Origin: an uncultured Acidobacteriota bacterium
GTDB lineage: Bacteria; Acidobacteriota; Vicinamibacteria; Vicinamibacterales; 2-12-FULL-66-21
Reading direction: 5' to 3'
Assembly: GCA_963725335.1 (NCBI GenBank)
Contig: CAVRYD010000014.1
Location: 698,598 to 762,597 of the forward strand
Length of the DNA: 64,000 nt
Made by a program: the position numbers and the translations under genes. How positions within the stretch are numbered: the stretch's first letter is position 1; each line of letters starts with the position of its first letter. The notes beneath the pieces were generated by a model. That model saw only the letters and a list, made by a program, of their open reading frames with translations, was not told where the DNA came from and searched no databases. Of the stretch, positions 3,199 to 63,565 are shown piece after piece.

Positions 3199-4896
3199 TT
3201 ACTTCTTCAACCACTCCGCAATCGTTTTCGCAACCGCTGGCGTGACGGTTTTGTCGGGCAGCGAGGAGTACTCCGACACATCTCCGGTCTGTGCCGGCGT
3301 CAGAAGATGGTTGATTCCCGGGAGATGAACGGCTTCGACCGGGGGCGACTTCTTGCGCGTGCGCGCCAGCGCGGCGAGCTGGTCGGCGTGATGCGGGAAC
3401 ACCTGCTGATCGAGATCCCCCTGAATGATGAGGATCGGCTGCTCGATCTTCTGCATCACTTTCGCCGGATCGAAGAGCAAGAGGCTTCGAAACCAGGCAG
3501 TGTCTGCCTGCTCGCGAAGATCGGGCGGAATCGACTCCCATCCCTTTTCGGTGATGACCGCCGACTGGATCCGGGTCTGGAGCTCGATCTTTGCCTGTCG
3601 ATCGGCCTCTGATGCATTCATCACATCGAGCGCGTGCCGCTGCTGCTCCAGGATCAGGTCCGACCCGGGTGTTCCGGGCGCGGCGATCAGAATGAGCGAC
3701 GCGATCCGCTTTTCGTTCGATGCCGCCAGCATCGCGACGGCGCCCCCTTCGCTGTGGCCGGCGACCGCGATTCTTGGAGAGTCCACATCCGGGCGTTTCG
3801 CGAGCCACCTGACGGCGGTGATCAGGTCATCGGCGTAATCCTGCAGCGTCGCCCGCTCGTTGCGTCCTCCGCTCTGACCGACTCCTCGCTTGTCGTAGCG
3901 AAGCACCAGGAATCCCTGATCCGCAAGCCCGCGCGCGATCTGCGCGAAAATCGGAACGCCCGCGACGACTTCGTCGCGGTCCACCGAGCCTGACCCCGAC
4001 ACCAGCACGACCGCCGCCAGGCGCAGCTTTCCGAGCCCGGTGGGGGTCGTCAATGTGCCGGCCAGGCTGAAACCGGTTGCGGGAATAATCACGTCGGTAT
4101 CATTCGGATTGCGCACCGGCTGTGAACGCACCGCGACCCCCGCCAGGTCGGATCGGATCACGCGCAGACCCGCGCTGGGTATTTCCACGCGGACCAGCCG
4201 GGCCCGCGAATCGATCGTCACGCTCGCATCGAGCGGACGTCCGGGGTTCTGAAACACCAGGTCGTAGCGGCGAGCAGCGATGAGCCCAGCTGGCGAAGAA
4301 ATCTGCTCGATGCTCATGCCTTTGACGTTGACGACGACTTCCCCCTGCGGTGCGACGTAGGCATGAAGCTCGGCGCCCGGCTGCGACCCCGACAGCCGCG
4401 CCGCCAGCGCCTCGTACCCCGCGAAGAACGAGTTCGGAAGGACGATCGTCCTCGCCGAGACCTGATCGGTCTTCGACGTTGTGGTCCCGTTCTGCGTGAT
4501 CTCGTTGATCGCGGTTGTCACACCGAACGACGTCGCGAGCATGAGGGGTCGACCGGATTGCGTGGCCTCGATATGGAGATCGACCGGTTGCCAGTCAGCG
4601 GTGTATTTCACCTCGAACCGGTTGACCGTCATGCTCACGGGTGCGCCGAACTGCGCGGTCGACGAGATGACCCACGTCGATCCCGACCGCGCGACTCGAG
4701 CGTGCTCGATCCCGACACGGCTTCCGGACATAAAGATGGTGAATTCGATATCACCTTCCGCGGGGGAGCCGGCCGGAGCCTCTGCAGCTGTCTGCTGAGG
4801 TCCTGAGACCCGCGCGCCTGCCCGCAGCGCCGCGGACAGGACTGTCGCAAGCATGGCGGACAGCGCTACCGCAGTAAAATGTCGTACTGATTGCAT
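3199..4896 (-). CDS. secreted alpha/beta hydrolase (serine hydrolase)
   Basis: 565-aa ORF with an N-terminal signal-like segment (AVALSAMLATVLSAALRAGA) and the nucleophile elbow GHSEGG in the C-terminal alpha/beta-hydrolase domain. Confidence 0.8.
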   Translation of the reverse strand: MQSVRHFTAVALSAMLATVLSAALRAGARVSGPQQTAAEAPAGSPAEGDIEFTIFMSGSRVGIEHARVARSGSTWVISSTAQFGAPVSMTVNRFEVKYTADWQPVDLHIEATQSGRPLMLATSFGVTTAINEITQNGTTTSKTDQVSARTIVLPNSFFAGYEALAARLSGSQPGAELHAYVAPQGEVVVNVKGMSIEQISSPAGLIAARRYDLVFQNPGRPLDASVTIDSRARLVRVEIPSAGLRVIRSDLAGVAVRSQPVRNPNDTDVIIPATGFSLAGTLTTPTGLGKLRLAAVVLVSGSGSVDRDEVVAGVPIFAQIARGLADQGFLVLRYDKRGVGQSGGRNERATLQDYADDLITAVRWLAKRPDVDSPRIAVAGHSEGGAVAMLAASNEKRIASLILIAAPGTPGSDLILEQQRHALDVMNASEADRQAKIELQTRIQSAVITEKGWESIPPDLREQADTAWFRSLLLFDPAKVMQKIEQPILIIQGDLDQQVFPHHADQLAALARTRKKSPPVEAVHLPGINHLLTPAQTGDVSEYSSLPDKTVTPAVAKTIAEWLKK

Positions 4897-9517: not shown

Positions 9518-9522
9518 CGATC

Positions 9523-9770
9523 GCGGATTGCGGATTGAAGATTGCGGATTTTGTGATGGCCGATTGTCGATTGAGATTGCTGATTGTCGATTGAGATTGC
9601 CAATTTACGATTGTATGGCCGAATCGGCCGGCTCAGAGGCCAATCGCCATTCCAATCAGCAATCGTCAATCCAAGTCAGCAATCGTCAATCCAAATCAGC
9701 AGTCCGCAATCTCAATCCGCAATCCGCAATCAAGAAATCCGCAATCTTCAATCCGCAATCAGCAATTCTT
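9523..9770. repeat. heptamer-phased imperfect palindrome (GATTGNN units / NNCAATC units)
   Basis: Left arm is built of GATTGCG/GATTGAA-type 7-mers and the right arm of their complements. The outer 26 nt are perfect inverted repeats: GATTGCGGATTGAAGATTGCGGATTT at 9526-9551 versus its reverse complement at 9735-9760. The centre lies near 9620-9640. Confidence 0.85.
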
Positions 9771-14675: not shown

Positions 14676-15203
14676 TCAACGGATGGGGTGCACAATCCTC
14701 GTGTAGAAGTCCTCCAGCGCCTCTCGCGTGCTCTGGAACGCGAGCTGATCCCACGGTATTTCCGCGCGCGCGAAGAGACCCGCTTCCAGCGACTCGTCGT
14801 CAACTCGCAGATCGCCGCCAATCACCGACGCCTTGTACACCACGACGACGATAGGACGTCCGGGGTAGGAGTAGATGTTGATGAGGCCGTCGAGGCGAAC
14901 GTCGAGCCCGGCTTCCTCGCGCGCCTCGCGGATCGCCGCGACGGTAATCTCTTCTCCACGATCGACGTAGCCACCGGGGAACACCCACAAGCCGTAACCC
15001 GGCTCGATGGCTCGGCGGACGAGAACGATTCGCTCGTCACCCGTCTCGATCACGGTCCCGACCGCCACTTTGGGATCGGCGTAATGGATGTACCCGCACC
15101 GTCCGCAGACCTGCCGCGGCGGATCGCGAGCTTTCAGCTGCCGGCTTTCGAGCGGCGCGGCGCAGGCGGGACAGAACCGAAACGCTGAGTCGGAAGACGT
15201 CAT
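14676..15203 (-). CDS. Nudix hydrolase with N-terminal zinc ribbon
   Basis: ORF track 14676..15473 trimmed to ATG 15203 (MTSSDSAFRFCPACAAPL...CGRCG). Nudix box GGYVDRGEEITVAAIREAREEAG. Confidence 0.8.
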   Translation of the reverse strand: MTSSDSAFRFCPACAAPLESRQLKARDPPRQVCGRCGYIHYADPKVAVGTVIETGDERIVLVRRAIEPGYGLWVFPGGYVDRGEEITVAAIREAREEAGLDVRLDGLINIYSYPGRPIVVVVYKASVIGGDLRVDDESLEAGLFARAEIPWDQLAFQSTREALEDFYTRIVHPIR

Positions 15204-15305
15204 CGCAGAAAACCACTCCAGTTTGCACCCGATCCGCTCTCGGATGCCTGCCTTCTGCGCGGCCCTGAGCCGTCCCAAGCCGTCGGCCGCCATATAATTC
15301 CCACT

Positions 15306-15872
15306 ATGTCGATTTTGAAGATCGCGCGCATGGGGCATCCCGTCCTGCGCGCGAAGGCCCGCGCGCTGCATCCCTCCGAGATCCGGACCCCGAAGATTCA
15401 GCAGCTCATCGACGACATGCTCGAGACGATGAAGGAGTATCAGGGGATCGGACTTGCGGCACCGCAGGTCCATGAAGGGCTGCGGATCTTTGTTGCCGGG
15501 TTCCCTCCCCGAAAGGACGTCGACGAGGACGACGAACGCGAGGAAGGGGAGGACGTGCCGCTGATGGCGCTCGTCAATCCTGAAATCGAGATGTCGTCAC
15601 GCGATGTCGTCGAAGATTGGGAGGGGTGCCTGAGCATTCCCGACATCCGAGGCCGCGTGCCGCGGGCGCGTCATATCGTCGTCCGCGCCTTCGATCGCAG
15701 TGGCAAGAAGATCGAGATGCCGGCGTCCGGGTTCACCGCGCGGGTGATCCAGCACGAGACGGACCATCTCGACGGCGTGCTGTTCTTCGATCGAATGAAG
15801 AATTTCCAGTCGTTGACGTTCCTCGACGAGTTTGGACGGTACTGGAGCGGCCACAACGTCCGCGCGGAGTGA
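15306..15872 (+). CDS. def: peptide deformylase
   Basis: 188-aa ORF carrying the three PDF motifs GIGLAAPQV, EGCLSIP and HETDHLDG. Confidence 0.9.
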   Translation: MSILKIARMGHPVLRAKARALHPSEIRTPKIQQLIDDMLETMKEYQGIGLAAPQVHEGLRIFVAGFPPRKDVDEDDEREEGEDVPLMALVNPEIEMSSRDVVEDWEGCLSIPDIRGRVPRARHIVVRAFDRSGKKIEMPASGFTARVIQHETDHLDGVLFFDRMKNFQSLTFLDEFGRYWSGHNVRAE

Positions 15873-15884
15873 GCGAGTGAGCTG

Positions 15885-15985
15885 AATCCCTAATCACTAA
15901 TCACTGATCCTGAATCGCTAATCCCGAATCCTTCAATCCCGAATCCTTCAATCCCGAATCCTTGAATCGCTGAATCGCTGAATCG
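15885..15985. repeat. left arm of heptamer-phased inverted repeat flanking the four-helix-bundle gene
   Basis: The arm reads AATCCCT AATCACT AATCACT GATCCTG AATCGCT AATCCCG AATCCTT CAATCCC GAATCC... Its outer 62 nt (15885-15946) are the reverse complement of 16522-16584, apart from 1 mismatch and 1 single-nt indel (hand alignment). Confidence 0.85.
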
Positions 15986-15997
15986 TGCATCTTCCTG

Positions 15998-16393
15998 TCA
16001 CTCTGATGAGCTGTGCGAGCCCCGGTCGTTCCAGTCGCTTCGGCGCAGGTATTTGATGAATCCTCCGAGCATCTTGCCGAGTTCCTCGCCGGCTGTGAGA
16101 TGCGGGTTCAGTTCGTCCTTCGAGATGAGTTTCTTGTGATGTGCCTGTCGAAGGCGCCTGAGAACCTCTGCCAGCGAAGCTTTCGAGTGGGTCAGGAAGT
16201 GCGCAAACGCACGATCGGTGCCTTGCTCGAAGCCTTCCTCCATGTTTGAGGTAATCGAGTCGTTGGCGTCCGAGATCTGTTCATGGAGTTTGCGATCTCT
16301 GCGCAGCCGTGGCGTCTCCAATATCGCATTAACTGCACTCCAGAAAGCCTCGGCCTTGTGATACATGGGGAGTTCCTCTAGCTTGTGAGCCAT
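15998..16393 (-). CDS. four-helix-bundle protein (23S rRNA intervening-sequence protein family)
   Basis: ORF track 15998..16438; likely start ATG 16393 (MAHKLEELPMYHKAEAFWSAV...). The pattern ...ISDANDSITSNMEEGF...F..FL..SKASLAEV...L matches my recollection of this family. Confidence 0.75.
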   Translation of the reverse strand: MAHKLEELPMYHKAEAFWSAVNAILETPRLRRDRKLHEQISDANDSITSNMEEGFEQGTDRAFAHFLTHSKASLAEVLRRLRQAHHKKLISKDELNPHLTAGEELGKMLGGFIKYLRRSDWNDRGSHSSSE

Positions 16394-16440
16394 GCCCCAG
16401 CAGTTAGGCACAGCACATGCCAGGATCCGGCATCCCACGA

Positions 16441-16584
16441 TTCAGGGATTCAGGGATTCAGGGATTCCAGGATTCAAGGATTCCGGGGATTCGGGGATTT
16501 GATTCGAGGATTCGGGATTGAGGATTCGGGATTGAAGGATTCGGGATTAGGCGATTCAGGATCAGTGATTAGTGATCAGGGATT
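16441..16584. repeat. right arm of heptamer-phased inverted repeat flanking the four-helix-bundle gene
   Basis: GGGATTC/AGGATTC-type 7-8 nt units. The outer part is the reverse complement of 15885-15946. It overlaps the last 5 codons and stop of the thyX-like gene (..SIPDH*). Confidence 0.85.
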
Positions 16585-18176
16585 GACCGCCGTTGTTCGA
16601 GAGCCCGTTCGGAACTCAGACGTTCGAGTTCGACTTCGGAGTGATCCACGAACTGCATCGCGGCGGCCAGTGCGCGGTGGCCGGCCCGCTGCGCGATCAG
16701 CGTGTGCATGCGCTGACACACTCGCCGATATGCGGGGTGGCCCTGCGGCGCGGAGCGCAGCTCGAGAACGTGCATCGCTTCGCGCGCGTTCATCTCCATG
16801 TAGAACCGCACCCGGTACACCATCGCAACCGCATATGGTGCAGCCGCTCTGAGGCCGGCCGCCGTCAGGGCATCGTGAAGGTTCGCGGACCGTTCCATGA
16901 CCTGGTTCCAGTCGTCCCCCGCTCCCGCTTCGACGATCGCTTCCGGCTGAATGAATCCGTGCCGGGGGGTCAGCGGCTGCCACTCGATCGTCAACAGGCG
17001 ATGGCGCTGCAGATCGCGAAACGCGCCATAGTCGGTCAGCACGTCGAAGCGATAACTCGTGCGCTCGAAGGCGCGGCCGGGACGATGGCGGCGGTTGGTG
17101 CGGTTGCCAACGTAGGCGCGAAGGATCGTGAGACGCTCATCAGCCGACAAGCGCTTCGCGATGTCGAGAAGCTGATCGTCGGGGAGGTCGGAAACCGCGT
17201 ACAGCGCCGCCGCGACGACTTTCGTTTCCCCCGCGGGGTCGAAGTCGGTCAGGGTCACCTCATCGCGCGGCTCGGGCTCGACCGCGGACAGGTCCGCCGC
17301 GACGTCTTCGAGTTCCTCGCGGATCGCCGCGAAGTAGCCGCTCCAGCGCCCGCCCCGGTCGGGCTGGTCGACACGCGTGAGGAATGCGGGAATGATCTTC
17401 CGCAACTCGACGAGCATCTGGTCAGCGCACGCACGAACCTCGGAAAGCGGATTGGCGCGCATGCGCAGCAACAACGCCTCGAACGCTTGACCGGTGCCGA
17501 AGATGCCGACGTTCGATTGTGTGGCAGCGGGAAGCATTCCGCGCAGTGTGTCGAGCGCCTTTGCGCGGATCGCCGCGCGATGGACGCCATCGGAATCCCC
17601 CGGCGCTTTTGGATATCGGCGGCTGAAGTACTCCTGCATCGCCGGAATCCATCTGGCGTACGTCTCGAACGCGCGATCCATCGTGTGCACGTACTGGTCG
17701 CGCAATTGTCCGGCTCCGATTTCCTCTGGAACGTGGTAACGCCACCGGTCGTGGAGCTTGTCCGTGTAAGGAACGTACCGCGTCGACTGCTCGAGGTAGG
17801 CCATCAGGCGACCCCATTCGAGCACTTTGGTGAGGACGTTGGACACGTACTCGCACGCGATGTGCGCACCGCCGAGCTGCGCGACGGAATCATCGCCGTA
17901 GTCGCTGAAGACCCGCGCGTAGAGGCGGTCGGCGCGTTCTATCGCGGCGCTGGCGGCAGGCGCGCGCGCACCCCGCTCGTCTTCGGCCGCGCCGACCTTG
18001 TCGGCGAACTCGTCGAGGAACAGCCGGCGAAGACTCTTGGCCGAGCGGGAATATCTCGCGAAAAGCGCGCCCTTGACCGTCTCGGGCAGGTTGATCAGCG
18101 CAAAGATGTGGCTATCGAGGTTGGTGAAGTACGGCGTCAGCCGCGCGCGTTCTTCCGGCGTGAACTCTTCGGACAC
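16569..18176 (-). CDS. ThyX-like FAD-dependent thymidylate synthase family protein (double-length form)
   Basis: 535-aa ORF starting at GTG. ARYSRS and two RHR-containing segments (TNRRHRPGR, DLQRHRLLT) recall the ThyX motif. The assignment is from memory of long Thy1-domain proteins and has not been searched. Confidence 0.55.
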   Translation of the reverse strand: MSEEFTPEERARLTPYFTNLDSHIFALINLPETVKGALFARYSRSAKSLRRLFLDEFADKVGAAEDERGARAPAASAAIERADRLYARVFSDYGDDSVAQLGGAHIACEYVSNVLTKVLEWGRLMAYLEQSTRYVPYTDKLHDRWRYHVPEEIGAGQLRDQYVHTMDRAFETYARWIPAMQEYFSRRYPKAPGDSDGVHRAAIRAKALDTLRGMLPAATQSNVGIFGTGQAFEALLLRMRANPLSEVRACADQMLVELRKIIPAFLTRVDQPDRGGRWSGYFAAIREELEDVAADLSAVEPEPRDEVTLTDFDPAGETKVVAAALYAVSDLPDDQLLDIAKRLSADERLTILRAYVGNRTNRRHRPGRAFERTSYRFDVLTDYGAFRDLQRHRLLTIEWQPLTPRHGFIQPEAIVEAGAGDDWNQVMERSANLHDALTAAGLRAAAPYAVAMVYRVRFYMEMNAREAMHVLELRSAPQGHPAYRRVCQRMHTLIAQRAGHRALAAAMQFVDHSEVELERLSSERALEQRRSIPDH

Positions 18177-19310: not shown

Positions 19311-19351
19311 GCGCCTCGCTCGGGTCGCAGGCGCTTTCCCTTTTCCCTTTC
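19311..19351. repeat. hairpin (GCGCCT-N12-AGGCGC) plus TTTTCCC heptamer tract, copy 1
   Basis: gcgcctcgctcgggtcgcaggcgctttcccttttccctttc. A near-identical copy in the same orientation lies at 20432-20484. This copy sits downstream of the + strand MBL gene like an intrinsic terminator. Confidence 0.7.
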
Positions 19352-19752
19352 TACGCGGGTAGCCAGCCCTTTGGCAGGTCGGGGACGCGTGCGGCGCGTT
19401 TGGCGGCTTTTGGCATTGCGTCGCGGATCACCTGCTCGAGCTGTTCGAGATAAGCGACGAAGCGCTGACGCCCGTCGGCGCTCAAACGGCAGAGCGTTTG
19501 AGGCCGACGGTTTTCAAATCCTTTCCAGACCTCGACGAGTCCGGCCTCTCGGAGGACGTCAAGGTGTCGGCTCAGGTTTCCATCCGTCAGCGCGCACAAT
19601 CGCTTCAGCTCTGAAAACAGCAGCCCCTCGGGTCGCGTCACGAGCGACGTCATGATCCCAAGCCGCGCCTTTTCATGGAGCACCCGCTCCAGTCCGTCGT
19701 AGGCGAAGCGCCCCTGGTCCTCGTCCCTTTCAGACTTCTTCTTCCCAGCCAT
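19351..19752 (-). CDS. winged-helix transcriptional regulator (ArsR/MarR-like HTH)
   Basis: 133-aa ORF with LHEKARLGIMTSLVTRPEGLLFSELKRLCALTDGNLSRHLDVLREAGLVEV, typical of a wHTH recognition region. Confidence 0.75.
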   Translation of the reverse strand: MAGKKKSERDEDQGRFAYDGLERVLHEKARLGIMTSLVTRPEGLLFSELKRLCALTDGNLSRHLDVLREAGLVEVWKGFENRRPQTLCRLSADGRQRFVAYLEQLEQVIRDAMPKAAKRAARVPDLPKGWLPA

Positions 19753-20386
19753 CGTTCTCCTCGGGACGCGTTCCGGCGGGGTGCGCCGCCGCGCCGCGTC
19801 GTTCCAGGTTCCAGAACAGCACGAATGCCGCCATCAGTTGTCCCGCGCCGAACGTTCCGCCGACCCACCACCCGTGCAGCGGTTCGGGCCCGTGCGCCAT
19901 CCAGAGAAGCGCGACGCCCGCCGCGTAGTAGAACAACGCGACCCATCCGCTCGCGCGCGGCAGATAAGGCCGCGACGCAAAGATGCCGACGCCGAAACAG
20001 ATGGCCCAGATGCCTGGAAGCAGCGGCACCAGCGCCGCGTCCAACCGCACGAAGCTGGCGGAGATGATCGCGCCCGCCATCAGGCTGGGCAGAAACTGCC
20101 CGACGACCTGGCGAGTGCGTCGCCGCGCGGCGGATTCATCCCGCAGGTAGTTATAGATGATCTCGCTCACGCCAACGAGCGCAGCGCATGCGGCAATCGC
20201 GCTCCAGTACCAGACGAATCCAATCGGATCGCGTACGCCAAGCGCGGGCGCCTGAGCCCATGCCGCAGCAATCCCGATGATCCCGGACGCCGCCACCGGA
20301 ACCGATCGATAACCGCGGTAGACCTCTCCCTTCGCAAGCTGCTGGTGGATATCGGCAAGCTGTCCGAGCGCGCGGGAAAGGTCCAT
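19730..20386 (-). CDS. integral membrane protein of unknown function
   Basis: 218-aa ORF with 5-6 hydrophobic segments. It overlaps the downstream regulator gene by 23 nt, so they are probably co-transcribed. Confidence 0.6.
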   Translation of the reverse strand: MDLSRALGQLADIHQQLAKGEVYRGYRSVPVAASGIIGIAAAWAQAPALGVRDPIGFVWYWSAIAACAALVGVSEIIYNYLRDESAARRRTRQVVGQFLPSLMAGAIISASFVRLDAALVPLLPGIWAICFGVGIFASRPYLPRASGWVALFYYAAGVALLWMAHGPEPLHGWWVGGTFGAGQLMAAFVLFWNLERRGAAAHPAGTRPEENDGWEEEV

Positions 20387-20431: not shown

Positions 20432-20484
20432 GCGCCTCGCTCGAGCCGCAGGCGCTTTCCCTTTTCCCTTTTCCCTTTTCCCTT
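20432..20484. repeat. hairpin (GCGCCT-N12-AGGCGC) plus TTTTCCC heptamer tract, copy 2
   Basis: gcgcctcgctcgagccgcaggcgctttcccttttcccttttcccttttccctt. This is a direct repeat of 19311-19351 with two extra TTTTCCC units. Confidence 0.7.
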
Positions 20485-27340: not shown

Positions 27341-27545
27341 CGGAGGATCACGCAGAGAACGCGGAGATCGCAGGGATCGCAGAGAGGACGGATCTCACGC
27401 GGAGAAGCGCAGAGTTCGCGGAGAAGAAACGTGGCGGTCGCCGCCACGTTTTTTTCTCTGCGGCCTCTGCGATCCTCTGCGCGAGATCGTTTTCTCCGCG
27501 GCCTCTGCGATCTCGGCGTGAGATCTCCCGCGATCTCAGCGAGAC
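27341..27545. repeat. long imperfect palindrome built from CGCAGAG/GATCGCAGAG-type units and their complements
   Basis: The left half is rich in cgcagag, gatcgcag and cgcggagaa. The right half is rich in ctctgcg, ctgcgatc and ttctccgcg. The symmetry centre is the hairpin at 27429-27449. Confidence 0.75.
27427..27456 (+). terminator. intrinsic terminator at apex of the palindrome (partly bidirectional)
   Basis: ACGTGGCGG-tcg-CCGCCACGT stem at 27429-27449 followed by a T7 run. The A-rich 5' flank gives a weaker T-rich tail on the minus strand, downstream of the HAD gene. Confidence 0.6.
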
Positions 27546-42250: not shown

Positions 42251-42274
42251 GCCATTCCGACTTGTAGGCAGCCC

Positions 42275-42337
42275 GAGTCGCGAGCCGCGAATCGCGAGCC
42301 GCGAGCCGCGAATGGCGAGCCGCGAGTCGCGAATCGC
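42275..42337. repeat. nine in-phase heptamers GAGTCGC GAGCCGC GAATCGC GAGCCGC GAGCCGC GAATGGC GAGCCGC GAGTCGC GAATCGC
   Basis: Counted base by base from 42275; there are exactly 63 nt with no phase slip. Confidence 0.85.
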
Positions 42338-48026: not shown

Positions 48027-49169
48027 TCATCGTTCGCGGTTCTTGTTGTCGTACATTCTTTCGTCTGCAATCTTGACGAGTGCCATGACGTCAGTCGCGT
48101 CCGGCGCCACTTCGGCGCATCCGATGCTGAGGCCTACACCGGCGGGAAGCGCCTCTGCCTCCGGTGACGTCGCGAAATCTCGCTGCAGCGCGGTGGCTCG
48201 GCGCAGCGCCTCCTCCTCGCGGCACGACATCAGAATCAAGAACTCGTCGCCGCCCCAGCGAAACACGTAGTCCACCTCACGGACATTCCGGATGAAGAAT
48301 GTCGCGACCCGGTGCAGAACGCGGTCTCCTTCCTCGTGCCCGAGAGTGTCGTTGATCGTTTTGAAGCGGTCGACGTCGATGAACACTATCGACAGCGGGA
48401 TGTGATACCGGCGATGCCGCTGGACCTCGCGGCCAATGACTTCGTCGAAATAGCGACGATTGCGACAGCCGGTGAGTGTGTCTGTCGTGACGAGATCGCG
48501 CAGCTCGTCCTGCGCGGCTTTGAGGCGGGTGTTGGTGACGCGCAGCTCGTACGTCATGTCTTCGAACGCCATGAGCTGCATGCCAAGTGCCGCCACGAGG
48601 TTGAGCGCAGTGTTGACGAACGTCAGGCGTCCGACCTCCTGAGTGATCTGCAAGCCAATCAGCAGCCACAGATGCGTGGCGGCGATGATGATGAACGTGA
48701 CGCCCACGACGAGCGCGCCGAGCAGGCGCCCTTGTCGGAGTATCGAGAGATGCCCGATGCCTGCAGCCGTCAGCGCTCCGGCAATGAGTAGATGACCGGG
48801 ACCAAACGCTGCCGTCGCGTACAGCGCGAGCGGAGCGAGGCTGAACCAGAGGAGAAGAGGAAGCAGAACGAGTGCGTAGCCGCGAACGATCCGGAGGCGT
48901 GCGCGATAGGCGTCGGCGGCGAGGACGAAGCTCAGCGCTCCGAGGATCGCGAGAAATTGAGACAATCCATAAGCGACGTAGCCCGCTTTCGGCCGCTCGA
49001 AGCCATGCCCGGCGAGGAGCAATGACAGTGCGGTGACCGCCCAGCCCGAGACCCAGCACACGATATAGGTCCGCCGGCGGTAGACATAGAGGAGGCACAG
49101 GACGCAAGCAACCAGTAGCGTGGCGATACCGCTCAGCGTGCGCGGATCGATGGATGAATCACTAATCAC
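48027..49169 (-). CDS. membrane-anchored diguanylate cyclase (GGDEF)
   Basis: 380-aa ORF with about 6 N-terminal TM segments. RNRRYFDE...IDVDRFKTINDTLGHEEGD...RWGGDEFLIL. The GTG start and first codons lie inside the heptamer array at 49160-49229. Confidence 0.85.
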   Translation of the reverse strand: MISDSSIDPRTLSGIATLLVACVLCLLYVYRRRTYIVCWVSGWAVTALSLLLAGHGFERPKAGYVAYGLSQFLAILGALSFVLAADAYRARLRIVRGYALVLLPLLLWFSLAPLALYATAAFGPGHLLIAGALTAAGIGHLSILRQGRLLGALVVGVTFIIIAATHLWLLIGLQITQEVGRLTFVNTALNLVAALGMQLMAFEDMTYELRVTNTRLKAAQDELRDLVTTDTLTGCRNRRYFDEVIGREVQRHRRYHIPLSIVFIDVDRFKTINDTLGHEEGDRVLHRVATFFIRNVREVDYVFRWGGDEFLILMSCREEEALRRATALQRDFATSPEAEALPAGVGLSIGCAEVAPDATDVMALVKIADERMYDNKNRER

Positions 49170-49229
49170 TGATCACTAATCGTGAATCCCGAATCCCGAA
49201 TCCCGAATCCCGGATCCCGGATCCGAATC
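49160..49229. repeat. ten in-phase heptamers CACTAAT CACTGAT CACTAAT CGTGAAT CCCGAAT x3 CCCGGAT x2 CCGAATC
   Basis: Counted base by base. The array fills the gap between the DUF420 stop (49233) and the GGDEF start (49169). Confidence 0.85.
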
Positions 49230-49232
49230 GGT

Positions 49233-49647
49233 TCACAGCCGATACAGCATCAGGTAGACGATCACGCCCGTGACCGAGACGTAGAGCCAGATTGGAAACG
49301 TCCATCGAGCGATTGCGACGTGACGATCGAAGCGTCCCCGGAGACCACGGATGACCGTGATGAGCGCCAGCGGCAGCACGGTCGCGGCGAGCACGACGTG
49401 CGTCAGAAGGATCATGAAGTAGACCGCGCGAATCGGACCGCGTCCCGGGAATGGTTTCGACCCGATGTTCGCGTGATAGATGACGTACAGATGTGAGAAA
49501 CGCCGTCGACACCGCGCATGCCGTGAGCATCGTCGCGCGGTGGCGGCGCATGTCGCCGGCGCGGATGAACGAGTAACCGATCACCAGCAGAACGGCAGCG
49601 GTCGCGTTCAGGCTGGCGTTGAGCGCCGGAAGATCGGAGAGAGTCAC
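49233..49647 (-). pseudogene. DUF420 family membrane protein (cytochrome-oxidase-associated), one +1 frame break
   Basis: Pieces are ORF 49162..49647 (MTLSDLPALNASLNATAAVLLVIGYSFIRAGDMRRHRATMLTACAVSTAFL) and ORF 49233..49415 (..ILLTHVVLAATVLPLALITVIRGL..WLYVSVTGVIVYLMLY). 415 nt minus 1 is a multiple of 3. Confidence 0.75.
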
Positions 49648-63051: not shown

Positions 63052-63431
63052 AAACCGTCCCTCACAATCATCCCTGTCAAACCCTCGGGTCGCTGGCTCC
63101 ACAAACGCGGTATTTCGCGAACGATGTTGGCTATCTGATCCGAAAGCAGTTATAAGTCAAATCCGGCAGCCGCTCGAGGACTCCGCGTCCGATGTGACTT
63201 TTTGTTGCCCGATCTCAGAGCGGCTTAACGACCCTTCCTCCGGAGCATCCGAGCAGTCTCGTTGGCCACTTGCCTCGATAGTGGCCAACTCGATTCGTGT
63301 TTGTACCTTGAAGAAAACTTGAAACTTTGCGCACGAAACGAGCCCTTTCGACCGGAGACGGCCGGAGCGATATGTGCAAATTTCCTAAGGAAACCGACGC
63401 AACCGGACACCGCCGATGTGTCGGGCTGCGT

Positions 63432-63474
63432 TTCTCAGCCACGGGACCGGGGTTCGAATCCCCGTACCGGTACC
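63432..63474 (+). other. 43-nt perfect copy of the 3' part of tRNA-Glu (anticodon loop to C75): att-site-like direct repeat
   Basis: TTCTCAGCCACGGGACCGGGGTTCGAATCCCCGTACCGGTACC is identical to 53895-53937. The 30 nt upstream do not form acceptor, D or anticodon stems. Confidence 0.85.
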
Positions 63475-63475
63475 T

Positions 63476-63565
63476 CAATCGCTAATCCCTCGTCACTGAT
63501 CCGAATCCCCAATCGTCGAATCCCTGATCCTCGAATCCCGAATCCTGAATCCTCCGCATAATCCT
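63476..63565. repeat. heptamer-phased array (CAATCGC TAATCCC TCGTCAC TGATCCG AATCCCC AATCGTC GAATCCC TGATCCT CGAATCC CGAATCC TGAATCC ...)
   Basis: This is the same AATCC-type unit family as 15885-15985 and 49160-49229. It starts directly after the tRNA 3'-half copy. Confidence 0.75.

Follow-up and report, generated by a model that had tools for sequence, protein, structure and literature searches.

Background

Intervening sequences (IVSs) that interrupt the 23S rRNA genes of Coxiella burnetii, Leptospira and other bacteria can carry an open reading frame (ORF) of the four-helix-bundle family PF05635. In the C. burnetii IVS this ORF, S23p, sits in the loop of a 28-bp terminal stem within which RNase III cleavage has been mapped, and 2-3 tandem GACAGAT heptamers, varying in copy number between strains, lie directly upstream of its start codon (PMC4990558). 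The authors of that study did not generalise this anatomy, and the S23p ORF is described there as decaying and apparently not expressed (PMC4990558). Here we describe a module of about 700 nt at positions 15885-16584 of a 64,000-nt stretch of DNA (hereafter the window) from an uncultured Acidobacteriota bacterium (contig CAVRYD010000014.1), in which a gene of the same family lies between two inverted arrays of 7-8-nt tandem repeats, in the gap between a peptide deformylase gene (def) and a thyX-like gene. This module is one case of a gene-in-hairpin cassette that is family-wide, and it corresponds, outside rRNA, to the ORF-bearing IVS. Kept by purifying selection, it behaves as a stable resident, with gains, losses and relocations over long timescales.

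The likeness to the rRNA IVS, already pointed out in a preliminary description of this DNA made from its letters alone, lies in the common protein family, the position of the ORF in the loop of a stem and the tandem heptamers adjoining the ORF; the RNase III-cut stem and GACAGAT repeats of Coxiella strengthen the analogy (PMC4990558). The two are nevertheless not the same thing. The defining site of an IVS is helix 25 or 45 of the 23S rRNA gene, and the window element, which is not in rRNA, is not an IVS in the strict sense. Its stem consists of approximately 100 bp of repeat arrays, against 28 bp in the Coxiella IVS, and, unlike the latter, it has a conserved sigma54-like motif in the loop and a protein under purifying selection. 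Cutting by RNase III is known for the Coxiella IVS and would apply to the window stem by analogy.

PF05635 is a very large family, with at least some 8,000 clusters at 90% identity in each of two profile searches (E <= 1e-5). Its members usually carry just the annotation "four helix bundle protein" or the erroneous "S23 ribosomal protein". They include two crystallised proteins of unknown function, XCC0516 (PDB 2GSC) and BT_0352 (PDB 2RLD), and the family is related to Avd, a factor of diversity-generating retroelements (DGRs). As far as the repeats are concerned, the short tandemly repeated repetitive (STRR) heptamers of cyanobacteria resemble those of the window in forming intergenic tandem arrays with lineage-specific units. 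STRRs are not known as inverted pairs around a particular family of genes.

A gene in the loop of inverted repeat arrays

The sequences at 15885-15987 and 16436-16584 form reverse-complementary arms. Relative to the bundle gene, which is on the minus strand, the def-proximal arm (103 nt of 7-8-nt tandem units) is the 3' arm, and the thyX-proximal arm (149 nt), built from the same unit family in inverted orientation, is the 5' arm. An inverted-repeat search resolved three pairs: 15885-15918/16551-16584 (34 nt, 97%), 15918-15947/16521-16550 (30 nt, 100%), which is offset by 1 nt from the first, and 15956-15987/16436-16467 (32 nt, 91%). The first two pairs reproduce an earlier alignment by hand, in which the outer 62 nt matched with one mismatch and one 1-nt indel. 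Folded on their own, the two arms give 100 intermolecular pairs, of which one is G-U, with energies of -181 kcal/mol (sense) and -193 kcal/mol (antisense); the excess length of the 5' arm forms a 46-nt bulge in the duplex. A 731-nt region folds at -338 kcal/mol on the minus (gene) strand (z = -16.3) and at -360 kcal/mol on the plus strand (z = -14.9), none of the 20 shuffles against which the z-scores were computed being equally stable. The inverted repeat and the strong stem on both strands that the preliminary description had led one to expect are therefore both present. Its term "heptamer-phased" is approximately right: Tandem Repeats Finder reports periods of 7, 8, 14 and 15 in the arms, which correspond to units of 8 as well as 7 nt.

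At its outer end the def-proximal arm reads AATCCCTAATCACTAATCACTGATC, and its inner units are YYGAATCC. Across loci the order from outside to inside is T[CG]AATC[AC]CT[ACG]ATC[AC]CT[AG]ATC, then YYGAATCC units, then an inner GAATCGTG. ATC recurs every 7 nt in these units, and both the unit sequence and the outer-to-inner polarity have been kept despite saturation of synonymous sites (dS of at least 1 between copies), which implies that the units are either constrained in sequence or continually homogenised. Stop codons are present in many of them, such as TAATCAC and TGATCAC and, in other lineages, TTAACGA, AATTGAC and GGTTTAAG (arms of the window and of loci L003, L005, L006, L021, L022 and L025; L numbers are our locus labels). 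With a period of 7 nt, three stop-bearing units place a stop in all reading frames, and neighbouring genes really do end within arms (the thyX-like gene in the window, def in several relatives). Methylation sites of the GANTC or Dam type were considered as a shared basis of the units and rejected, as they fit GAATC, GATTC and GATC in the window but not the units of other lineages.

Rfam returned no family match for 15800-16700 at either the gathering or the E-value threshold. In a scan of 15200-17200 for intrinsic terminators and sigma70 promoters nothing rose above shuffled sequences, and no U-tract terminator was found at the stem base or in the loop; the sole terminator match within the module is a weak internal site at 16481-16496, and the count of such matches is no higher than in shuffles. 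We accordingly rejected the class of bidirectional intrinsic (rho-independent) terminators for the module, as the short G+C-rich stem with a U tract behind it, expected on both strands, was not found.

The sole cargo between the arms is the four-helix-bundle gene, at 15998-16393 on the minus strand. Mechanical ORF calling extends it to 15998-16438 (146 aa from a GTG), but conservation in an alignment of 29 homologues starts at MAHKLEEL, which places the real start at the ATG at 16393-16391 and gives a protein of 131 aa plus stop, the length noted from the letters alone. Its assignment to the 23S-IVS-type family likewise stands, with matches above the cut-offs for both PF05635 (7.6e-17; 61.9 bits against a cut-off of 33.8) and TIGR02436 (5e-19; 68.4 bits against 24). 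An AlphaFold2 model of the monomer (predicted local distance difference test, pLDDT, 90.7) consists of four long helices arranged as a four-helix bundle. The best PDB matches found by Foldseek are XCC0516 (2GSC; TM-score 0.81 query-normalised and 0.90 target-normalised), BT_0352 (2RLD) and Avd (4DWL), with 8UBE and 8UB7 also among the matches; the window protein thus has the family and fold of the two crystallised proteins, and the fold of Avd. Between copies dN/dS is 0.09-0.16, at dS of at least 1, and on this sequence evidence the protein is functional and under purifying selection. In the syntenic L005 copy (4001-4397 of that locus) there is an apparent frameshift near the C-terminus, the sequence departing from the family after GGFIKYL, through decay or assembly error.

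Avd is a pentameric RNA-binding platform. The bundle protein is Avd-like, and by this analogy it plausibly acts on nucleic acid. A search for defence systems with PADLOC gave no match, and the only PHROGs match was a weak one to "Avd protein of DGR" (E = 0.005). Membership of a DGR was considered and rejected: the score against bAvd (PF22296) is 18.4 bits where the cut-off is 40, and the gene stands alone between its arrays. Neither a reverse transcriptase gene nor a template/variable (TR/VR) repeat pair was found beside it, the ORFs within 14-18.5 kb of the window being def, the thyX-like gene, NUDIX-like genes and others, and the repeat search revealing no such pair.

Inverted arrays accompany the family in three phyla

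The preliminary description had raised the possibility that other genes of the family are bracketed in the same way. A pattern scan restricted to one genome per species yielded 20 loci, mostly from Vicinamibacterales/Acidobacteriota metagenome-assembled genomes (MAGs), the remainder coming from a gammaproteobacterial MAG, Vibrio tapetis and an unclassified bacterium. Inverted tandem arrays are present on both sides of nearly every bundle gene in these loci. To them we added a Riemerella plasmid-like replicon, Gramella, Flavivirga, Chryseobacterium, another gammaproteobacterial contig, close relatives of the crystallised proteins (a BT_0352-type and an XCC0516-type gene) and another Bacteroidaceae gene. 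All of these also proved to consist of a gene between inverted arrays, with a unit sequence that differs by lineage.

The relatives of the window in Vicinamibacterales, down to approximately 52% identity, have GAATCCY / TAATCAC units, while the unit is CCCGCRT at L012, GCGACTA at L015, GAGTCAGA at L016 and CAGTAGC at L020. Gammaproteobacterial MAGs have TTAACGA and Flavobacteriia GGTTYAAG or TTCAAGR. The BT_0352-type gene and the other Bacteroidaceae gene lie between five AATTGAC and four GTCAATT units, and the XCC0516-type gene of Xanthomonas between GGGAATC.. and ..CCATTCC units. A tblastn search of plasmids found only Riemerella records, which resemble chromosome-like replicons, and a scan of viral contigs gave a single poor locus (L113), whose bundle gene is likely a pseudogene.

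As a control, 1040 random pseudo-genes of equal length were placed in the same loci, and each was scored by aligning its upstream flank with the reverse-complemented downstream one. These control scores average 9 and reach 18 at most, with 14.5 as the 99th percentile; the window scores 72. Among family genes, 22 of 25 lie above the 99th control percentile when flanks of 200 nt are compared, and 24 of 29 with flanks of 100 nt, including the BT_0352-type gene (araD/araA) and the XCC0516-type gene (accB/accC). These controls refute the idea that two unrelated simple-repeat tracts are complementary by accident. That both arms are simple tandem repeats, which inflate the scores of repeat finders, speaks for such a low-complexity artefact; the 100 pairs with one G-U, the fold z-scores of -15 to -16, the failure of any of the 1040 control flank pairs to exceed 18 and the recurrence of the layout at 24 of 29 homologues leave it next to no probability.

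In Bacteroidota and Xanthomonas the cassettes are compact: the arms abut the start and stop codons, without room for a promoter. These cassettes are tightly packed in housekeeping operons and codirectional with them at five independent sites (sufA/sufB, araD/araA, accB/accC, aminotransferase/DAHP synthase and DinB/SpoU), and both arms must therefore be contained in one transcript. The BT_0352- and XCC0516-type cassettes differ from that of the window in this compactness, with arms of 25-45 nt, no promoter room and a codirectional operon setting, and in having units unrelated to GAATCCY.

Judging from these sequence comparisons, a gene between inverted 7-8-nt arrays appears to be a trait of the family as a whole, seen in each of the three phyla sampled (Acidobacteriota, Bacteroidota and Gammaproteobacteria). 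The rRNA setting of the IVS and the repeats upstream of the Coxiella ORF have both been described; what appears to be new is the generality, inverted 7-8-nt arrays being the constant companion of a large protein family. We found no published description of a gene-array association for the family as a whole in the full-text literature covered, which leaves out subscription journals and the family notes of databases; the heptamers reported for Coxiella were the one related finding.

If the arrays are universal to the context of these genes, the rRNA IVSs would represent just one of the many sites into which a general cassette inserts, and the RNase III stem, the binding of arrays, or both, would become testable in tractable organisms, at BT_0352 of B. 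thetaiotaomicron (ara operon), XCC0516 of X. campestris (accB/accC) or sufA/sufB of Riemerella or Flavobacterium. Annotation could also be affected, since arrays might be taken for clustered regularly interspaced short palindromic repeats (CRISPRs), and the cassette splits operons that look contiguous. A figure legend of a large clustering study names "23S rRNA IVP" as one of the protein domains with a link to CRISPR arrays (PMC10910872); it is a speculation on our part that the tandem arrays flanking such genes might have been mis-called.

Neighbouring genes and a promoter-like motif

As the preliminary description had it, the module lies outside rRNA and between convergent genes. Rfam at the gathering threshold found no rRNA in the 64-kb window, and one tRNA only. 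The def gene (15306-15872, plus strand; PF01327, 2.9e-53; NF001159, 4e-50) converges on the cassette, its stop codon lying 12 nt outside the arm. On the other side is the thyX-like gene (16569-18176, minus strand), which encodes 535 aa with two Thy1 stretches (PF02511, 7e-36) and falls below the equivalog cut-off of TIGR02170 (44.7 against 87.9 bits). Its stop codon (16569-16571) is inside the thyX-proximal arm, as had been seen before, together with its last four codons rather than the five first counted. The thyX-like gene is upstream of the bundle gene and codirectional with it, and since it ends in the 5' arm, read-through from it would transcribe arm, gene and arm in succession.

Inside the loop, 14 nt upstream of the ATG, is a sigma54-type -24/-12 promoter-like motif, TGGCATGTGCTGTGC (16408-16422, minus strand), the sole match to TGGCAYGNNNNKTGC in the window. 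It fits the sigma54 consensus, with GG at -24 and GC at -12 at the canonical spacing (TGGCACG-N4-TTGC), and a count by eye gives 16 of 18 related Vicinamibacterales-type loci with GGCAY-N7-TGC approximately 13-18 nt before the ATG. The region holding the motif is non-coding, as the upstream frames are closed or out of frame. We infer a putative sigma54-type promoter with a predicted transcription start near 16396 and an mRNA that would have next to no leader. A promoter at this place within the loop implies that the gene's own mRNA would not include the 5' arm and that only read-through transcripts could form the stem.

History of the def/thyX-like site

The thyX-like protein is unusually long, and a metagenome scan with it gave 80 loci at 69-85% identity, in which its gene is nearly always convergent with def; the convergent pair as such is kept in about 60 of these 80 relatives. 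Only the window, metagenome locus L021 and the genome MAGs L003, L005 and L006 have the bundle gene in the gap. Empty sites of the kind for which the preliminary description had proposed looking in related genomes are present. The closest relatives (L022-L025, with 83-85% thyX-like identity) do not have the bundle gene in the gap. Among the empty sites, L035 and L036 have almost no spacer, L022, L025, L037 and L094 have one-sided arrays of window-type units, and L031, L032, L041 and L060 have cargo-less palindromic arrays of entirely different units. In L051 and L075 the gap holds another gene or an insertion sequence (IS) element: at 3449-4546 of L075 an IS-like element, about 1 kb long, whose ORF resembles a transposase gene, and a short-chain-dehydrogenase-like gene on the opposite strand at 1416-2265 of L051, also seen in L026 and L033. 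This variety of inserts marks the thyX-like/def gap as a recurrent insertion site.

In a tree of the thyX-like protein the filled sites form one clade within which the empty L023 and L024 are nested, a pattern suggestive of a single gain and a later single loss. At the thyX 3' end, members of the sister clade (L027, L028, L030, L025 and L022) have either a palindrome without cargo or a solo arm, built from units of the window type. The gene may have entered a palindrome that was already there, or it may have been deleted from a cassette.

The preliminary description had proposed that a host hairpin acquired the gene. For the window site itself either order of events may apply, since arms of this type without cargo are present in the sister clade, as that proposal would have it. 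As a general statement it is probably the wrong way round: the arrays follow the family through three phyla with lineage-specific units, and they would thus be an attribute of the cassette and not of the host. In its developed form, the proposal would be that 7-8-nt arrays are the generic gene-end device of this lineage, a palindromic terminator or insulator that captured a passenger gene. It draws on the different-unit palindromes in the gaps of L031, L032, L041 and L060, on the same-unit palindromes and solo arms of the sister clade, on an array of the window (27359-27525) that is centred on a canonical bidirectional terminator, and on the downstream gene converging on the cassette in 13 of 17 Vicinamibacterales loci (a crude call from GC periodicity). 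We nonetheless find it quite unlikely. Bracketing recurs in other phyla and in codirectional operons, with lineage-specific units, and in an rRNA IVS, so that capture would have to have been repeated independently, which is implausible; the stem base is without a U-tract terminator; and away from bundle genes arrays of the cassette type are rare (one in approximately 128 kb of flanks of L001-L016).

Among 17 Vicinamibacterales homologues at least 11 distinct genomic contexts are represented, and in the tree of the bundle protein the non-syntenic copies L001, L002 and L004 are nested among the def/thyX copies, which means that relocation has happened. Identical proteins, found on 18-24 contigs, are always in one context; this, along with the dS of at least 1 between copies, indicates that relocation was not recent. 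No target-site duplication was seen at the window cassette, the flanks of which read GTGAGCTG and GACCGCCG, and comparison of copies and contexts produced no evidence of active, recent mobility. On these sequence data the cassette is inherited mostly vertically, and is gained or lost as a unit over about 15% protein divergence, with many sites in related genomes.

Could the cassette be an active mobile element, its arms being terminal inverted repeats (TIRs) and its bundle protein a factor for mobility, with solo and cargo-less arrays as derivatives comparable to miniature inverted-repeat transposable elements (MITEs)? Such an element would account for the presence or absence of the cassette at the def/thyX-like site, the number of contexts, the nesting of L001, L002 and L004 and the TIR-like conserved terminal signature of the arms, and mobility was proposed for the Leptospira IVS by Ralph and McClelland, as cited in PMC4990558. 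TIR transposons and MITEs, like repetitive extragenic palindromic (REP) sequences and bacterial interspersed mosaic elements (BIMEs), do resemble the module in their inverted termini with an outer signature, their solo or gene-less copies and their location in intergenic gaps. What sets the module apart from all of these is that its arms are tandem arrays of variable length, without transposase, target-site duplication or recent copying. The sole ORF encodes a 131-aa helical bundle and not a transposase or recombinase fold, synonymous divergence between copies is saturated, which speaks against a recent burst of copying, identical proteins stay in one context, and the gene is under purifying selection like that of a resident. 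We regard active transposition as very unlikely, and rejected the TIR transposon/MITE class for want of a transposase and a target-site duplication, and because of the dS values and the single context of identical proteins.

A possible role for the stem

The reading that we favour, and hold to be probable by a modest measure, is modelled on the rRNA IVS: transcripts crossing the cassette would fold into a duplex that RNase III cleaves, excising the cassette RNA and insulating the neighbours, while an internal sigma54-type promoter would give the gene regulated expression of its own. A transcript reading through from the thyX-like gene (minus strand) or from def (plus strand) would hold both arms and could form a near-perfect duplex of about 100 bp. 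RNase III would then cut this duplex as it does that of the rRNA IVS, a step taken over by analogy, releasing the cassette RNA and leaving the neighbouring mRNAs capped or insulated. Excision and insulation of this kind could explain why the cassette is tolerated in convergent gaps, in housekeeping operons and in rRNA alike. In the lineage of the window the bundle protein is probably also expressed alone, on a near-leaderless mRNA from the internal promoter.

Several observations weigh against this proposal. The RNase III step at the window locus is borrowed from the rRNA IVS. Among arm mismatches at 22 loci, those compatible with G-U pairing number 47 in the sense and 55 in the antisense orientation, compared with 136 transversions, a count of low power that is subject to unit turnover; with no wobble bias, sequence evolution gives no sign that an RNA stem of one strand is what selection acts on. 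Complementarity of arms within loci (mean 45) is no higher than between loci (mean 40, maximum 83). The arms thus owe their pairing to a single conserved unit family from which both are built, and not to locus-specific compensatory change, and an argument from locus-specific covariation was dropped for the same reason, within- and cross-locus scores being alike. Judged from the alignments, unit sequence and polarity are maintained at synonymous saturation, and a stem alone needs neither. The conserved promoter motif within the loop would yield an mRNA of the gene that is without the 5' arm, and solo arms exist that are unable to form a stem. Finally, the constant context of identical proteins on 18-24 contigs leaves room for no more than rare mobility. 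The arrays may have a role in binding DNA or protein.

Such a role is at the centre of the main rival explanation, which is partly compatible with the RNase III model. Here the arrays would be DNA or RNA binding sites of the bundle protein, acting as an oligomeric nucleic-acid binder of tandem 7-8-nt units: its own arrays would serve autoregulation, solo and cargo-less arrays would be further targets, inversion would follow from symmetric binding, and RNase III would not be needed. The bundle gene is the only protein gene co-inherited with the arrays, the unit type tracks the protein subfamily (GAATCCY, TTCAAGR, AATTGAC, TTAACGA, GGGAATC), and the conservation of unit sequence and polarity at dS of at least 1, the cassette-type solo arms at 49157 and 63470 of the window and the lack of wobble asymmetry in arm mismatches are all as binding would predict. 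The fold moreover matches Avd, a component of the DGR ribonucleoprotein (8UBE, 8UB7). Binding is, however, putative, being deduced from sequence; the window protein is not basic (isoelectric point 7.15); the cargo-less palindromes of the same genome use unrelated units, so that one protein cannot explain them all; and in Coxiella the stem and repeats persist although the S23p protein is apparently not made (PMC4990558). We judge this explanation unlikely, if the strongest of the competitors to the RNase III model.

A wider proposition can be put forward tentatively, as a possibility that we rather doubt: PF05635 genes and their inverted 7-8-nt arrays may make up an unrecognised multi-phylum class of gene-in-hairpin cassettes, of which the rRNA IVSs were the members noticed first, and which colonise gaps, operons and rRNA helices. 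The Avd-like protein would bind, build or maintain the arrays, and solo and cargo-less arrays would be footprints of the protein or its further targets.

Other arrays and repeats in the window

The preliminary description had listed cargo-less palindromic arrays of the same kind near 9523 and 27341. Both are real and of the same style as the cassette arms; their units differ from those of the cassette and belong to other repeat families. The first (9519-9766), with units GATTGCG / CAATC.., has 86-nt arms that are 81% complementary and lies between two minus-strand genes. The second (27359-27525) has units CGCAGAGA / TCTCTGCG of approximately 8-9 nt and a terminator hairpin at its exact centre, a canonical bidirectional intrinsic terminator at 27424-27454 (AAGAAACGTGGCGG-TCG-CCGCCACGTTTTTTT), so that its arrays resemble outward extensions of that hairpin.

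The arrays of the window that truly match the cassette arms are two solo arms on the plus strand, at 49157-49232 and 63470-63554; an inverted partner was searched for in both cases and not found. The first has the outer signature and polarity of a cassette arm (GAATCACTAATCACTGATCACTAATCGTGAATCCCGAATCCC...) and fills the space from one minus-strand ORF (48027-49169) to the next (49162-49647). The second follows directly on a tRNA-like 3' fragment consisting of T-arm and acceptor (ggttcgaatcccc...), the two together spanning 63412-63554. This fragment was not called by ARAGORN, and its only Rfam match is a weak one to mascRNA (E = 0.92); it may be what is left of an att-type site, or belong to a tRNA-like RNA not yet recognised.

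Two further repeats were seen. Tandem TTTCCCT arrays at 19335-19350 and 20456-20484, in direct orientation, bracket a two-gene minus-strand module made up of a 133-aa winged-helix-regulator-like ORF (19351-19752) and a 218-aa membrane-like ORF (19730-20386). At 42274-42337 a 21-nt tandem repeat, CGAGCCGCGAGCCGCGAATCG, itself composed of heptamers, is present in three copies.

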